DNA of 64,000 bases. It comes from Escherichia coli 042. Lineage in GTDB: Bacteria > Pseudomonadota > Gammaproteobacteria > Enterobacterales > Enterobacteriaceae. Position numbers and translations under genes: made by a program. The notes under the pieces were generated by a model. It worked only from the letters and a program-made list of their open reading frames with translations, did not search any database and was not told the DNA's origin. Positions 28,739 through 34,770 of this stretch are shown here, piece by piece. The stretch lies in the NCBI RefSeq assembly GCF_000027125.1, contig NC_017626.1; one strand, written 5' to 3'. Each line of letters begins with the position of its first letter. The stretch's first letter is position 1.

Positions 28739-30682
28739 TTAAATCCTTAGCAGACGTTTGCAATTTGCAGCCGTTTGTTCTGCATCCTGGATATCCTGTT
28801 CCGACATTAAGCATCGCAACGCATCTTTTTCAATCCAGGGGTTGTTATTTCCGGCAATTGTTAGCCACATCCATGCTTGTTTATTATCAATTTTAGTGCC
28901 TGTCCCCTGAGCATACATTGCCGCAGTCTGGTGCTGCGCCTCGGTCGACCCTAAACGCGCCGCTTTTTCGTACCAGTGCAGCGCATGATTTTCATCTTTT
29001 ATGGTATCTTTTGTACCGTACAGATACATTTCGGCTAACAAAAATATCGCCTCTATTTGCCCACGCTGCGCTGCACCAGTAATCCATTGAATAGCCTCTG
29101 CGTTATTTTCAGGATCATCATTGTTGGTTAAATAATATTTCCCCAATTCATACATGGCCTCCCCTGCCCCATCTGTCCCATTTTTTGCTACTTTGGTAAA
29201 CCAGTACAGCGCTTTTTCCTGGTCCTGTAGAATACTCTCACTTTCGCTATACAACCTGGCAGTATGATATTGCGCATATAAATATCCCTGTTCTGCTGAT
29301 TGCAAAAGCCAACGATGGGCCTGTACCTTATCACGTGCCACACCAATCCCGTGTATATACATTTGTCCCAAATCATACTGGGCACGCTCATGTCCTTGTG
29401 TGGCGGCAGATAAATACCACCGTAATGCTTCTTCATAATTTCGTAATGGCTCAACAGCGAAGCGTGAGATACGGGCAATCTCATATTGCGCAGATGCGTT
29501 GCCATTTTTGGCAGCAAGTAAAAACCATTTTCGTGCCTCACTAATATTCTTATCCGTGCCCCTTCCATCGCGATACATGATGCCCAGCGCATACTGAGCA
29601 TCGATAACATTATGCTGCGCGGCGCGGGTAAACCAGTTAAAGGCTAATTTTAGATCCTGTGAAACCTCATCACCTTCATAATACATTTTGCCAAGAGAAT
29701 ACCAGGCAAGTGAATAGCCTTGCTCTGCAGCATGTAAGCAGGACTGGAATACAGAAGATGGATAATAAAAAAGACCTTTTAATTTTATGGCATTTAGCAA
29801 CTTTTTATATCCACTATGATGTTGCATTGCTAAATTATTGAAGCGTTCTGTTAATTTCCACTTGCGAATCATTTTTTCTTTTCGCCAGGAATATGATAAA
29901 CGCTCTATTAACAATGCCATATAGTTGTCTGATAGTTCAAATCCAGCGACTTTATTTAATACTGCGATATCAAACCATTTCAGGCTCTCTTCATTATCCT
30001 TTAATGATTGATAAATCGTAGCCATTTCCTTCCCGTTTTCCATTTCTTCCAGTGGAGACGAGTTACTGCCAAAGAAAGGGGTAATTTGTTTTTCGATTCG
30101 TGAATAAAGAAGACAACTTTCGTTAATTTCTGTCTGGATAGCTGGTTGACGGCTGCCTGCAACTAAATGCCATCTGAACGTTTGTGCAGCAGCGAGAGTT
30201 AATAATGGCCGGAATACCCGATGAAGATGCAGTAATAACGCTTCTTCAAAGCTCATTCGTGAGCTGAGATCTTTTTTCTCAAGGAAAGATAACGCCTTAG
30301 CAAGTTGCATGGGGGCGTGTTCGGGGGTTGCTTCATTCTCCTCACAGAGCATATCCAGCACGGCTTGCCAGGTGAATTCCTCCTCTGATTTAATAGTGAC
30401 ATCAGGAAGTGGATGACCAGAAAAGGTGTTGAGTGCGCGAAATGTCATCACAGGACGAGGATGAACAATACCCCTGGATATATTGATCGGTTGCTCTTCT
30501 TCCTCTTCTTGCCACTGATCTTCGTCGTCATAACGTAAAGCCTGTTCATAAGCATCGTGCAATTGTTGCCAGGCTTCGGGAGAATCTTCCGGGCGGCAAT
30601 TTTTTACCAGTTGCGCATAACGACGCTTAATATCTCGTTCTTCCGCGCCAGGTTGTAAACCTAATATTTCCCAGCAGTTCAT
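28739..30682 (-). CDS. J-like domain / Sel1-repeat protein, putative co-chaperone of the adjacent Hsp70
   Basis: ORF track 28739..30697 trimmed to ATG at 30682, which overlaps the upstream Hsp70 stop as ATGA. N-terminus CWEILGLQPGAEERDIKRRYAQLVKNCRPEDSPEAWQQLHDAYEQAL resembles a J domain but has RPE where HPD is expected; acidic linker; C-terminal half contains multiple Sel1-like repeats (AQYALGIMYRDGRGTDKNISEARKWFLLAAKNG, AQYDLGQMYIHGIGVARDKVQAHRWLLQSAEQG). Not a K-12 gene I recognise at this locus. Confidence 0.7.
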   Translation of the reverse strand: MNCWEILGLQPGAEERDIKRRYAQLVKNCRPEDSPEAWQQLHDAYEQALRYDDEDQWQEEEEEQPINISRGIVHPRPVMTFRALNTFSGHPLPDVTIKSEEEFTWQAVLDMLCEENEATPEHAPMQLAKALSFLEKKDLSSRMSFEEALLLHLHRVFRPLLTLAAAQTFRWHLVAGSRQPAIQTEINESCLLYSRIEKQITPFFGSNSSPLEEMENGKEMATIYQSLKDNEESLKWFDIAVLNKVAGFELSDNYMALLIERLSYSWRKEKMIRKWKLTERFNNLAMQHHSGYKKLLNAIKLKGLFYYPSSVFQSCLHAAEQGYSLAWYSLGKMYYEGDEVSQDLKLAFNWFTRAAQHNVIDAQYALGIMYRDGRGTDKNISEARKWFLLAAKNGNASAQYEIARISRFAVEPLRNYEEALRWYLSAATQGHERAQYDLGQMYIHGIGVARDKVQAHRWLLQSAEQGYLYAQYHTARLYSESESILQDQEKALYWFTKVAKNGTDGAGEAMYELGKYYLTNNDDPENNAEAIQWITGAAQRGQIEAIFLLAEMYLYGTKDTIKDENHALHWYEKAARLGSTEAQHQTAAMYAQGTGTKIDNKQAWMWLTIAGNNNPWIEKDALRCLMSEQDIQDAEQTAANCKRLLRI

Positions 30683-32379
30683 TGTAGACGCTCCCATTCC
30701 AGAGAGTCTAATGTCGGTTCAACTTTAGCCCGAAAATCAGCTAGTTGATCAGGATCCTGCTTCTCGAGTAGATAACTGAATTGACGAGAGCAATTGCTTA
30801 TCCAGTCTCGTGTTTCCGCCAGGGTGAGTTGATAGAGATTATCAAGACGGGCAATAAAGGCCTGGTTTATCTGTTCATCGCGTGGGTGAATTTTTAACAG
30901 GCTTAATTTGGACAACGACTGCTGTATTTGTTCTGCCGTTAATGCCCCTGGGTTCTGTTCAATAACCAGACTATTTTTAGCCCCTGTCAGTGGCACGCTG
31001 ATATCGACATCAAGAATACCGTTAATGTCGTACGTAAAACGAACATCAATACGCACATTACCGGCCGGTTTTGGCGGAACATTCACTGACAACTCCGCAA
31101 GGAAAATATTATCACCCACCATCCTGCTTTCACCCTGGTAGATTTTAAAATTAACCTCTGTTTGTTGATCATGTGCCGTATAAAAGGCACGAACGCGACT
31201 ACAAGGAATACTTCGGTTACGCTCAATAACGGGTGCAAAATAGCCTGATTCGCGGGTATGCCCCAGCGATTTAGAGGTATCAACGCCAAGTGTATAAGGG
31301 CAAACATCGGTCACTACTACATCTTGTAATTCGCTGTGCCGCGCTTTAAGTGCGGCCTGAATAGCCGCGCCCTGAGCAATGACTTCATCCGGGTTTAAAT
31401 GCATTGCCGGTATACGACCAAAAAGTTGTGTCACAAGTTTGCGAATCAGCGGCATACGTGTAGTGCCACCCACAAGAACAACCTGGTCTAATTGGCTAAT
31501 ATTAATTTTTGCATCGCGAATTGCCCGTTCCAGTGGCATACGGATTCGCTCGAAAAATGCCTGTAATAAAAATTCAAATTTTTCTGTGGTCAGATGCCAG
31601 TAATATCGCCTTCCTTCAATCTCCACACTGAAAGTTGCTTCGTCACGCATACTAAGCACGCGTTTGACACGCTCAGCCTCAATGCGTAAATGGCGTTGGA
31701 GTGTCGGTTCACGCCATTCAATATTTTCAGGAAGATCCATACGTGAGCAATATGCATCGATCAGGATATCGACAATATCTTCACCACCTAAAAAGTTATC
31801 CCCGGCACTGGCTCGTACTTCCATAATATTGTCAAACAACTCCAGTATGGAGATATCAAACGTACCACCACCTAAATCGAATACCAAAAATTGATGTTCA
31901 TCATCTTTATTATGCAAACCATACGCCAGTGCAGCGGCGGTTGGTTCGTTAATTAAACGTTCGACGTTTAAGCCTGCCATTGAAGCTGCCAATTTTGTTG
32001 CTTTGCGTTGCACATCACCAAAATAAGCAGGTACGCTAATTACTGCTTCTGTTATCTCTTCACCTAAATAGCTTTCAGCATCATCTTTTAGCTGACGCAG
32101 TATCAGCGATGAGAGTTCCTCTGCCCGAAATTCACGTCCGCCCAATTTAAACGTCTTTGATGTGCCCATCATGCGTTTAAAATTGGCTGCACAGTTTTGT
32201 GGTTTGATGAGTTGCAGGTCACGAGCTGCCTCCCCTGTCAAAACCATACCATCTTCGTCAACACAAACTACGCTGGGTGTTAAAAACTTGCCTAACGCAT
32301 TGGGGATCAGTTCACTTTGTCCATTTCGCCATACCGCTGCCAGACTGTTAGTCGTCCCGAGGTCAATACCGATAATCAT
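30679..32379 (-). CDS. Hsp70-family ATPase, HscC-like
   Basis: ORF track 30679..32394 (TTG) trimmed to ATG at 32379 with AAGAGGA Shine-Dalgarno. Hsp70 motifs present: IGIDLGTTNS (phosphate 1), FDLGGGTFD (phosphate 2), VLVGGTTRMP (adenosine), beta-sandwich substrate-binding region VTDVCPYTLGVDT; about 566 aa, shorter than DnaK. Confidence 0.75.
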   Translation of the reverse strand: MIIGIDLGTTNSLAAVWRNGQSELIPNALGKFLTPSVVCVDEDGMVLTGEAARDLQLIKPQNCAANFKRMMGTSKTFKLGGREFRAEELSSLILRQLKDDAESYLGEEITEAVISVPAYFGDVQRKATKLAASMAGLNVERLINEPTAAALAYGLHNKDDEHQFLVFDLGGGTFDISILELFDNIMEVRASAGDNFLGGEDIVDILIDAYCSRMDLPENIEWREPTLQRHLRIEAERVKRVLSMRDEATFSVEIEGRRYYWHLTTEKFEFLLQAFFERIRMPLERAIRDAKINISQLDQVVLVGGTTRMPLIRKLVTQLFGRIPAMHLNPDEVIAQGAAIQAALKARHSELQDVVVTDVCPYTLGVDTSKSLGHTRESGYFAPVIERNRSIPCSRVRAFYTAHDQQTEVNFKIYQGESRMVGDNIFLAELSVNVPPKPAGNVRIDVRFTYDINGILDVDISVPLTGAKNSLVIEQNPGALTAEQIQQSLSKLSLLKIHPRDEQINQAFIARLDNLYQLTLAETRDWISNCSRQFSYLLEKQDPDQLADFRAKVEPTLDSLEWERLQ

Positions 32380-32394
32380 AATTATCCTCTTCAA

Positions 32395-32560
32395 ATAAAT
32401 GAACTGATCATTTTATAGAGCAGTTATATATATTCATTTTGTGAATAATGTTCACAATCCCTGCGTTTAAAAATAATTTATAATGATGCAATCCATAACA
32501 TAACTTACGTGAATATAAAGATATTTCGTTTATAATTTTAGCTGTGGGTACTTATATCAT
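32395..32560 (-). promoter_or_regulatory. AT-rich upstream region, presumed promoter of the Hsp70 operon
   Basis: About 165 bp of very AT-rich sequence immediately upstream of the Hsp70 start; typical of promoters of horizontally acquired genes and of H-NS-bound DNA; no specific -35/-10 assigned. Confidence 0.3.
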
Positions 32561-32574
32561 ATACTCTAAATAAT

Positions 32575-32770
32575 TCGATTTGTAGGAAGGCAGCAAGTAA
32601 GTGAATCCCGAGGAGCTTACATAAGTAAGTGACTGGGCTGAACGACAAATCCGCATGGAGCGGATTTGAACGCTGCTTTCAGCGGCCCCGTAAGGGGTGA
32701 GGCCCATGGATGGGCCGAATAACCCGCAGACGCAGCACATGCAACTTGAAGCATGACGAGTATAACCAAT
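32575..32770. other. GC-rich structured non-coding segment (candidate small RNA or gene remnant)
   Basis: No convincing ORF; direct repeat AAGTAAGTGA twice 30 bp apart (32596-32605, 32623-32632); hairpins AATCCGC-ATGGAG-CGGATTT, CCCC-GTAA-GGGG (GNRA-type loop) and GGCCC-ATGGAT-GGGCC; followed by the 32771-32808 terminator hairpin. Confidence 0.25.
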
Positions 32771-32808
32771 AAAGCCAATGGCGGAATATCTACCATTGGC
32801 TTTGTTTT
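32771..32808. terminator. Hairpin terminator between topB and the structured segment
   Basis: AAAGCCAATGG-loop-CCATTGGCTTT followed by GTTTT on the plus strand and preceded by an A-rich run, so it could terminate plus-strand transcripts and, less efficiently, topB. Confidence 0.5.
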
Positions 32809-32823
32809 AGAGTGGAAAACGAA

Positions 32824-34770
32824 TTAATTAGCAGAATCCGTATTATCTTTTTTGGGCTTTGCCGCTTTTTTCACACGATTATTGGGTGCTTTTTTAACAG
32901 CCCCCCCACCTGGTGCCACAATTCCTCTAAACCGTCTGACCGGAGTGCTACGAGCCTGATCAATCAGTTGGTAAAGCGTCCCCACCAACGGCTGCATAAA
33001 GTCCTGATAGCGACACTGCTTTTCGCTGATTTGCGTCAGCACCGATTCCCAGTGCGCGGTCATGTCCGGTCTCGTTGCCATCTCCGGCAGCGAATGGAAT
33101 AACGCTTTTCCAGCGTCGGTGGAGTGGATATAGCGCCCTTTTTTGGTCAGGAAACCACGCTTGAACAACAGTTCAATAATCCCGGCACGTGTTGCTTCTG
33201 TCCCCAGACCATCGGTAGCACGGAGGATCTTTTTCAGATCTTTGTCCTGCACAAAGCGCGCGATCCCGGTCATCGCCGAAAGCAGTGTTGCATCGGTAAA
33301 ATGGCGCGGCGGCTGCGTTTGCCGCTCTACCACTTCACCTTTTTCACACAGCAACTCATCGCCTTTCGCCACCACAGGCAGCGGCGTGCCATCGTTTTCT
33401 TCATCGCGCTCTTTGCTGCCTAACAGCGTGCGCCAGCCTGCTTCGGCAAGAAAACGGGCTTTAGCGACAAATTTACCTTTGGCTATTTCCAGTTCGATAA
33501 CACACTTGCGGAACACCGCATCCGGGCAGAACTGCATCAGGTATTGACGAGCAATCAGGTTATAGACCTTCGATTCGTTCTCCGTCAGGTTGATCGCAGA
33601 ACTCCGTGCGGTCGGGATGATGGCGTGGTGCGCATCGACCTTTTTGTCATCCCAGCAGCGGTTGCGTATATCTGGATCGACCACTGGCTGCGGTAACAAC
33701 CCCGGTGCATGAACGCTGATGGCATTCATCACTGCGTGGCGTCCGGCAAAATGCTCTTCCGGCAGATAGCGACAATCGGAACGCGGATAAGTGATTAGCT
33801 TGTGCGTTTCGTACAACTTCTGGCAGATATCAAGCACGTTCTGCGCACTCAGACCAAAGCGTTTTGCCGCTTCAATCTGCAACGCCGAAAGCGAAAACGG
33901 CAGCGGTGCGGATTCTGATTCCCGTTTATCGTTATAGCTGGTGACTATAGCCGGTTGACCACTAATGCGGTTAACCACATGCTCCGCCAGTGGACGATGT
34001 AACAAGCGCCCTTCTTCATCCTGGTACGGTTCACACGCTTCGCTCGGTTGCCAGATAGCGGTAAACCGCTCATCGGCAGGTGTCACGATATGTGCTTTGA
34101 CTTCAAAGAAGTCTTTCGCCACGAAGTTTTCAATCTCTTCGTCGCGGCGCACTACCAGCCCGAGCACGGGCGTCTGCACGCGTCCCACGGAAAGCACGCC
34201 CTGATAACCCGCATTGCGACCGAGAATGGTGTAAGCGCGGGTCATATTGATTCCGTACAGCCAGTCGGCTCGGGCTCGCGCCAGTGCAGAAACGCACAAC
34301 GGCACAAACTCACTGTTGGAACGAAGACGATCGATCGCCCGCTCAACCGCCTGCGGGTTCAGGTCGTTTATCAAGCAACGCTGCACCTGCTGGCGCTTTT
34401 CCGGTGCCAGTTGCAGATAGTCCAGCACTTCATCCACCAGTAATTGCCCTTCGCGATCCGGGTCACCGGCGTGAACGATTTCGCTGGCTTCATGCAGGAA
34501 GCGTTTGATGACATTAAGTTGTTTAGTCACGGAGGGTCGGGGCTGTAATTGCCACTTTTCCGGGACAATCGGCAAATCCGCAAGATTCCAGCGCGCATAG
34601 CGGCTGTCGTAGGCGTCTGGCTGCGCCTGCTCAAGCAGGTGACCGATACACCAGGTCACTACCTGACCATTACCGCACTCGATAAAGCCATCGCCTTTCC
34701 GGTGCGGTTTGGGCAGGACATCAGCAATGGCGCGCGCCAGACTCGGTTTTTCGGCAATAAACAACCGCAT
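32824..34770 (-). CDS. topB: DNA topoisomerase III
   Basis: ORF track 32824..34827 trimmed to ATG at 34770 ([19 protein letters not shown], Toprim N-terminus), 4 bp after the selD stop; gives 648 aa. Confidence 0.9.

Follow-up and report, generated by a model that had tools for sequence, protein, structure and literature searches.

A segment dense in hairpins beside topB in Escherichia coli 042 is very probably an ERIC repeat with a nested module of tRNA-linked-repeat type, followed by a putative topB-linked terminator

The closest described counterparts of the segment considered here are the ERICs, or enterobacterial repetitive intergenic consensus sequences, MITE-like repeats also called IRU or RU-1 (described by Sharples and Lloyd in 1990, by Hulton et al. 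in 1991 and by Wilson and Sharp in 2006), and the tRNA-linked repeats, or TLRs (Egan and Landy, 1978; Rudd, 1999). Duplication of a TA is a hallmark among the properties listed for ERICs (PMC2229807), which also carry a pseudo-ORF on their reverse strand (PMC2759123). Insertions within ERICs are a published topic in their own right (Sharp, 1997; Cromie, Collins and Leach, 1997), to go by the citation of these works as references 13 and 14 of PMC3696847. [quoted passage not shown] The RtT-family sRNAs that adjoin tRNA genes in A. pleuropneumoniae are likewise reported as expressed, as seen on northern blots (PMC4986893), and the AaHKsRNA22 family, Aggregatibacter sRNA 22, has been defined as a Pasteurellaceae sRNA rather than as a repeat. 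Comparable elements are also found among the MITEs known as Correia/NEMIS, RUP and YPAL/RU-2, which are likewise dispersed non-coding elements of small size with a predicted RNA fold, some of them influencing mRNA processing. However, these show no sequence relationship to the elements discussed below, which differ further in including a nested module devoid of terminal inverted repeats or target duplication.

The window analysed here, i.e. the whole stretch of 64,000 nucleotides from contig NC_017626.1, contains the segment of interest in the gene order gdhA, J-domain protein gene, Hsp70-family gene, the segment itself, topB, selD and ydjA (Table 1). We consider it highly probable that this segment is ordinary repeated DNA, namely an ERIC with a nested TLR-type module (32560-32764), followed by a topB-linked terminator (32768-32806). 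It thus comprises two independent things, the repeat and the terminator hairpin, and, since ERICs, ERICs with internal insertions and TLRs have each been documented, it belongs with what is already known. The original prediction had drawn attention to a GC-rich, hairpin-dense stretch at 32575-32810; the observation itself was sound, though the structured unit begins with TATACTC... at position 32560, 15 nt earlier. An AT-rich spacer (32380-32559) separates the repeat from the Hsp70-family gene, and on the other side the repeat lies 60 nt beyond the topB stop codon. The sequence of Ecol_316 (NZ_CP018957.1) is identical to the window across 32500-32860, which includes the entire segment.

Table 1. 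Coordinates of the features at the Hsp70-topB spacer (positions in the window) and of two ERICs with two modules at other loci (positions in the respective locus)
Feature	Coordinates	Strand	Basis
Hsp70-family gene	30679..32379	-	downstream of the repeat on the - strand; annotation of NZ_CP018957.1 and ORF list
ERIC/IRU left arm (TATACTCTAAATAATTCGA...CTGGGCTGAACGA)	32560..32645	+	end-to-end alignment with the consensus; alignment with other ERIC loci
TLR-core-type module	32646..32721	+	absent from the EC12 locus; R1 score; covariation; homology to RrB and RtT
ERIC/IRU right arm (CGCAGACGCAGCACATGCAACTTGAAGCATGACGAGTATA)	32725..32764	+	alignments; TATAC... and ...GTATA inverted ends; TA duplication relative to the empty C10 allele
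Hairpin (arms 32768-32781 and 32793-32806; T-run on +, weaker U-rich tail on -)	32768..32809	.	folding
topB (DNA topoisomerase III)	32824..34770	-	stop codon 32824-32826; annotation of NZ_CP018957.1 and ORF list
Two-module ERIC, E. coli CUVET17-1418, upstream of gyrA	L004 1929-2000 and 2041-2118		
Two-module ERIC, Serratia oryzae	L028 8251-8322 and 8362-8438		

Homology to K-12 ends at window position 28683 and is regained at 32909, a point within the 3'-terminal part of topB; accordingly, the segment lies in a strain-variable block of 4.2 kb. The check proposed in the original prediction, whether it is core or part of an insert, thus comes out in favor of the block lacking K-12 homology. This block (28684-32908) stands in place of the K-12 ynjI region, where ynjI sits between gdhA and topB, and contains genes for a J-domain/Sel1-repeat protein and for an Hsp70-family (HscC-like) protein, together with the spacer and an alternative version of the final ~85 nt of topB; it is present in roughly 250-265 of the 5426 complete E. 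coli genomes. The alternative offered in the original prediction was that decay of an earlier gene, ynjI for example, had left only this 5' part, and ynjI does adjoin topB in K-12. However, 28684-32908 shows no similarity to the K-12 ynjI region, the ERIC (aligned end to end) and the module account for the sequence base by base, and the allele in which the same site is empty (see below) shows that the sequence was inserted into the spacer. Hence, a ynjI remnant is exceedingly improbable and we abandon that suggestion. The ynjI-topB spacer of K-12, which happens likewise to be 127 bp long, is unrelated to ERIC and does not align.

On alignment, 32560-32764 is an ERIC/IRU element interrupted by a central block. 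Each of the 127 positions in the published E. coli consensus for ERICs (Wilson and Sharp, 2006, as printed in Table 1a of PMC2759123) has its counterpart in the window, 106 of them being identical (83.5%), and the sole gap in this alignment is a 78-nt insert; identity to a Salmonella ERIC copy is 110/127 (86.6%). Alignment of dispersed copies places the limits of the unit at TATACTCTAAATAATTCGA... and ...GACGAGTATA, and its ends can pair with each other (TATACTC with GAGTATA) on both strands. The whole of 32560-32764 folds at -77.3 kcal/mol on the + strand (z = -5.5) and at -70.1 kcal/mol on the - strand (z = -4.6). As a further check, the flanking arms were compared with ERICs from other loci, and no failure to align was observed. 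The ERIC core occurs in 5425 of the 5426 complete E. coli genomes, at 2-16 places in each (median 10), and the related copies elsewhere in E. coli are all intergenic (yeiS-preT, yehK-yehL and upstream of gyrA), with no annotated feature beneath the matches. The direct repeat noted in the original prediction, AAGTAAGTGA, does occur twice (32595-32604 and 32623-32632); both occurrences fall in the left arm and are intrinsic to the ERIC consensus (AAGTGAGTGA/ATCC... and AAGTAAGTGA/CTGG..., where the slash, here and below, divides adjacent sequences). The absence of a convincing reading frame also stands, in that the 62-aa ORF on the - strand (32552-32740) is the known ERIC pseudo-ORF (PMC2759123), with its C-terminal part (SLTYVSSSGFTYLLPSYKSNYLEY) corresponding to the ERIC pseudo-peptide. 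This ORF is a likely source of spurious gene calls.

The window copy thus shares with other ERICs the 127-bp imperfect palindrome, the TATAC... and ...GTATA ends, the TA duplication, the intergenic location, the many dispersed copies and the reverse-strand pseudo-ORF. It departs from a typical ERIC in being split by the 78-nt block, in its 83.5% identity to the consensus and in its residence in a strain-variable block absent from K-12. A GC-rich, intergenic and hairpin-dense segment could equally bring to mind a REP/BIME-type or some other GC-rich palindromic repeat; however, the arms fit ERIC across all 127 positions, the inner block fits the TLR-core model and not REP, and neither the Rfam nor the repeat evidence gave any pointer to REP. 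We give this identification next to no credence.

Three alleles of the Hsp70-topB spacer, when compared, show the order of nesting: an empty site, then an ERIC, then an ERIC with the module. In C10 the site is empty (...TATATCA-TA-ATAAAT...), in EC12 it holds the ERIC only, with a duplicated TA at its flanks (...TATATCA-TA[TACTC...GAGTA]TA-ACCAAT...), and in the window allele the EC12 junctions enclose the same ERIC, with the 78-nt block at its center. An approximate census of the 5426 genomes gave ~112 without the ERIC, ~132 with the ERIC only and 21 with both ERIC and block. Within the spacer, a TA dinucleotide is the point at which the ERIC is inserted. The ERIC arms at topB keep locus-specific variants right up to the module junction (GGGCTGAACGA in the EC12 and window alleles), which argues that the module was precisely gained or lost, and against a conversion event with some other ERIC as donor. 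Nevertheless, the extra CC common to the E. coli copies at the right junction (GAATA-ACC-CGCAG versus GAACGA-A-CGCAG in the empty ERIC) indicates that the event was not perfectly clean, i.e. not a clean cut-and-paste. In NZ_CP018957.1 a blastn search recovers a single ERIC-type copy of the module, at topB; in other strains the site occupied is, instead, yeiS-preT, yehK-yehL or the region upstream of gyrA.

The central block is a discrete structured module with strong covariation. It reads CAAA, H1, TTGAACG, H2, H3, GAG, H4 and CGAATA, and is inserted at the center of the ERIC after ...GAACGA; the junction bases 32722-32724 (ACC) are of uncertain assignment, and relative to the allele that lacks the module there is a net gain of 78 nt. 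The original prediction had counted three stable hairpins, including CCCC-GTAA-GGGG; these exist, but the central block has four, formed respectively by CAAATCCGC with GCGGATTTG, CGCTG with CAGCG, GCCCC-GTAA-GGGGT (H3) and GGCCCA with TGGGCC. The fold of the 78-nt block reaches -40.6 kcal/mol (z = -5.2 against shuffles). In an alignment of 38 diverse copies across the four helices, 91.9% of the cells are paired versus 35-45% in slid registers, the covariation score is 0.339 versus 0.04-0.07, and compensatory changes affect 12 pairs, with the independent covariation coming only from H1, inner H2 and H4, as the pattern used to collect copies fixed H3 and the outer H2 pairs. None of 500 shuffles attained the observed paired percentage or covariation score, and the covariation analysis suggested at the outset has thus supported an RNA-like inner module.

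The folding strand can be identified as the + strand of the window because G-U combinations outnumber A-C ones on the sense strand by 111 to 29 (in a model-fitted alignment, which favors G-U) and the closing pair of H3 alternates between G-C and G-U (24:14). A covariance model, R1, built from ERIC-nested and tRNA-linked copies of the module, scores 89.8 bits on the window copy, on the + strand only. The loops of H1 and H4 in this copy (32660-32664 and 32709-32712) both contain GGA, as in the CsrA-binding RrB TLR. We considered a CsrA decoy on this account and rejected it: GGA is present in both loops in only 41 of the 93 primary copies (alignment A5), and is therefore not a constraint across the family.

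The module is homologous to the core of the TLRs, including RtT at tyrT and RrA/B/F after 5S rRNA, and to AaHKsRNA22. First, R1 scores 49.4 bits on the TLR of K-12 rrnB (rrB), of which H1 is almost identical to that of the window copy, and in rrB 5S sequence flanks the module on both sides (GAGTAGGA / module / AACTGCCAGGCAT). Second, when R1 was run with filters off on a 3-kb tyrT locus, only four matches exceeded 10 bits; these coincide one by one with the four matches that Rfam RtT (RF00391) has there, each lying within its counterpart and on the strand of the tRNA; the scores are modest (21-24 bits, with rough E-values), with position and strand agreeing in 4/4 cases. The Rfam RtT consensus itself consists of the 3' part of tRNA-Tyr with its T-loop split by the module. 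Third, a tmRNA-linked copy from Shewanella scores 38.1 bits with Rfam RtT over its full length and 31.2 bits with AaHKsRNA22 (RF02902), whereas copies from Aggregatibacter, Cricetibacter and Mariprofundus exceed the AaHKsRNA22 gathering threshold, related copies scoring 40-79 bits. Accordingly, RF00391 and RF02902 have the appearance of a single family, or failing that of a single clan. The Shewanella element matched by both RtT and AaHKsRNA22 lies at L085 3964-4101 (Shewanella gelidimarina), and the zetaproteobacterial match of AaHKsRNA22 above gathering at L087 311-409 (Mariprofundus MAG).

The window copy itself had resisted assignment to any RNA family, and the Rfam scan indeed returned nothing at gathering; yet its best match in the window, although sub-threshold, is AaHKsRNA22 (25.3 bits, E = 0.014, gathering 39.8), extending full-length over the four hairpins. 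RtT (RF00391, gathering 45 bits) gave no match in 32300-32900 even at E-values up to 10; its model includes flanks derived from tRNA-Tyr, which the window module does not have. The remaining sub-threshold matches, to Qrr, isrH and STnc540, cover the terminator or an ERIC arm and were dismissed. In common with the TLRs, the window copy has the ~77-nt core GACAAA, H1, TTGAACG, H2, H3, GAG, H4 and CGAGTA, with host sequence resuming on both sides of this core at a GA/A junction. The settings are different: TLRs reside in tRNA and rRNA operons, just downstream of a stable-RNA gene, while the window copy is inside an ERIC in the topB-Hsp70 spacer, with no tRNA or rRNA gene among its annotated neighbors. 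It also lacks the terminal 18-19 bp repeat of the gene end seen in TLRs, its module running instead into the right arm of the ERIC; in its non-enterobacterial relatives this repeat is exact (L007 and L078) or approximate (L085).

As predicted at the outset, a terminal hairpin followed by a T-run closes the segment. It has 14-nt arms and begins 17 nt past the topB stop codon, with folding energies of -20.9 kcal/mol on the + strand (z = -6.0) and -18.9 kcal/mol on the - strand; on the + strand it is directly followed by TTTGTTTT, the tail reading UUUGUUUU there and UUUAUUGGUU on the - strand. A simple terminator scan did not call it, because its loop of more than 8 nt lies beyond the limits of that scan (3-8 nt). 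This hairpin is kept next to topB in all three allelic states, and, being retained where the ERIC is missing, it belongs with topB and not with the repeat. We read it as a putative intrinsic terminator, possibly bidirectional.

These elements bear directly on the small structured RNA that the original prediction had proposed, transcribed divergently from the Hsp70 operon. That proposal was partly right, since the inner 78 nt are RNA-like with covariation and their sense strand is the + strand, which is antisense to both topB and the Hsp70-family gene. In its full form it would entail an independent + strand sRNA gene of ~200-260 nt, running from the AT-rich spacer to the terminator at 32768-32806. 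For such a gene speak the + strand fold of the module, a structure much more stable than shuffles, the better T-run of the hairpin on the + strand, the GGA motifs in the H1 and H4 loops, like those of RrB, and the reported expression of relatives (RrA/B/F, PMC8144298; the RtT family in A. pleuropneumoniae, PMC4986893). However, these relatives are products of read-through or processing in strongly transcribed operons of tRNA and rRNA, a setting with no equivalent here, and a scan of 32300-32900 predicted no sigma-70-like promoter on either strand. Moreover, the entire structured unit is a dispersed repeat, so that its structure needs no locus-specific function, the spacer lacks the ERIC in ~112 genomes and has the module in 21 only, and the terminator remains with topB where the ERIC is absent. 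A dedicated sRNA gene is hence quite unlikely; the repeat together with the topB terminator explains the layout.

Alternatively, the element might act in cis on the mRNA of topB or of the Hsp70 operon, being co-transcribed on the - strand and modulating mRNA stability. Precedent comes from Yersinia, where, in the accounts of De Gregorio (2005) given in PMC2229807 and PMC10969869, ERICs are co-transcribed with neighboring genes and alter the stability of upstream transcripts, an effect ascribed there to exposure of an RNase E site and varying both with orientation and with how far away the stop codon lies. The proximity of the element to the topB stop codon and its stable - strand fold would suit such a role, but the strong hairpin, a putative terminator, stands between topB and the ERIC, and natural isolates carry each of the three alleles, which argues against the element being required. 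We regard this as unlikely, and infer that the composite at topB is most likely a neutral passenger. If transcribed, it could by analogy still exert a generic ERIC effect, with a stable RNA structure altering mRNA processing or stability.

Composite repeats of this kind, with their stable hairpins, GNRA-type loop and a terminator nearby, mimic structured sRNA genes and should be masked or labeled before searches for sRNAs or riboswitches. The three natural alleles also constitute a natural experiment on the effects of an ERIC, and of its insert, on the expression of neighboring genes. As a side result, the ERIC insert, RtT, RrB and AaHKsRNA22 come together through one covarying core and one GA/A junction. 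A literature search yielded no paper linking ERIC insertions with TLRs or RtT, which is a weak negative given the sparse coverage of the older literature; if new, the shared core provides a testable origin for TLRs and suggests that RF00391 and RF02902 belong together.

The module is found in 648 of the 5426 E. coli genomes, usually as one copy. Beyond E. coli, a degenerate pattern derived from hairpins 2-3 recovered more than 120 stretches from a collection of species-representative genomes: Serratia oryzae has dozens per genome, the pattern is also frequent in Serratia silvae, Pectobacterium, Dickeya, Yersinia and Citrobacter, and further matches come from Shewanella, Aliidiomarina, Methylophaga, SAR92, Oceanospirillales, Pasteurellaceae and Mariprofundus. 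As many as 72 of the 107 pattern-defined copies outside E. coli lie within ERICs, all in the same orientation (72:0), with the junction ...GA/CAAA...GAGTA/ACGCAG. Like the previously described ERICs with internal insertions, these have a well-folded insert of ~70-80 bp at a specific internal site. Here, a second insertion site is also in evidence, in Serratia and upstream of gyrA in E. coli. It lies in the left arm, between GAGTGA and ATCCCC, and is occupied in many ERICs by an additional module that has diverged. ERIC insertions have been reported at specific internal sites, which the occurrence of two sites fits. The ERICs with two modules, a diverged copy in the left arm and a standard copy at the center, are ~277 bp long (Table 1).

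Outside Enterobacterales, by contrast with the copies nested in ERICs, the module is found at a distance of ~50-230 nt downstream from a tRNA or tmRNA gene that is itself intact, and 6/7 of these neighboring genes are co-oriented with the module and upstream of it, the exception being L112 (see below). ARAGORN calls these intact genes and never the module itself, which is thus not a tRNA or tmRNA. Five such loci were examined closely (L007, L078, L079, L085 and L087), and in each a hairpin, mostly with a T-run, is found between gene and module. In L007, and in L078 for both of its units, the gene's 3' end from the T-loop to CCA is repeated without change after the module, while in L085, L087 and L079 the repeated stretch is similar but diverged. 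Immediately upstream of the module, four of the five loci have the 5' half of the T-loop, giving the arrangement ...GGTTCGA / module / ATCC...CCA, whereas L079 reads GGTTCA. In Enterobacter sp. Ag1, what comes after the module is the 3' end of 5S rRNA. A Sedimenticola MAG (L112 9175-9286) has the module 53 nt upstream of an intact tRNA-Ser gene; there it is preceded by a copy of the 5' end of tRNA-Ser (GGAGAGCTGGCCGAGTGGCTGA/), a D-loop-like position unlike the usual T-loop arrangement.

The GA/A junction is common to four hosts, namely two sites in ERICs (GAGTGA/ATCCCC and GAGCGA/ACGCAG), the T-loop of tRNA or tmRNA (TTCGA/ATCC) and the 3' end of 5S rRNA (TAGGGA/ACTGCC). The module has neither terminal inverted repeats nor a target duplication, and its orientation is fixed; it behaves as an insertion of one set orientation would, placed at GA/A where the DNA encodes a loop. 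We tentatively propose that the ~77-nt TLR core is an orientation-specific mobile module, of a kind not previously described, that inserts at GA/A in DNA encoding the loops of structured RNAs; we advance this as a possibility rather than as the expected outcome. On such a model, TLRs would be fragments of pseudo-tRNAs or pseudo-5S rRNAs split by the module, and RtT (RF00391), AaHKsRNA22 (RF02902) and the ERIC insertions would form one family that ranges across Enterobacterales, Pasteurellaceae, other Gammaproteobacteria and the zetaproteobacterial Mariprofundus. Encoding no protein, the module would have to move in trans, by means of some enzyme or via an RNA intermediate. No autonomous parent, i.e. 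a module split by a long insert, was present in ~0.95 Mb of loci, the cases with only a left end all being variants missed by the right-end pattern, and no protein-coding parent element was found in the loci examined. Alternatively, a single ancestral composite could have spread, in which case the fixed orientation within ERICs would not stem from oriented insertion on many occasions.

Two further arrangements were observed in other taxa. In the MAG Proteobacteria SZAS-88 (L019 1-121 and L022 44-125) the modules form head-to-tail arrays (...GGGCCGAGTA/CTAAATCGGC...), with no ERIC or tRNA sequence separating the units. In loci of Pseudomonas sp. SJZ079 (L013-L017), other Pseudomonas (L026 and L107), Stutzerimonas stutzeri (L103) and Marinobacterium (L111), the H2-H3 core alone (TTGAACG-hairpin-GCCCC-GAA-GGGGTGAG) occurs inside a different multi-copy repeat; these partial copies were excluded from the model. 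In L026 and L107 this core lies 74 nt from a convergent tRNA-Asn gene.
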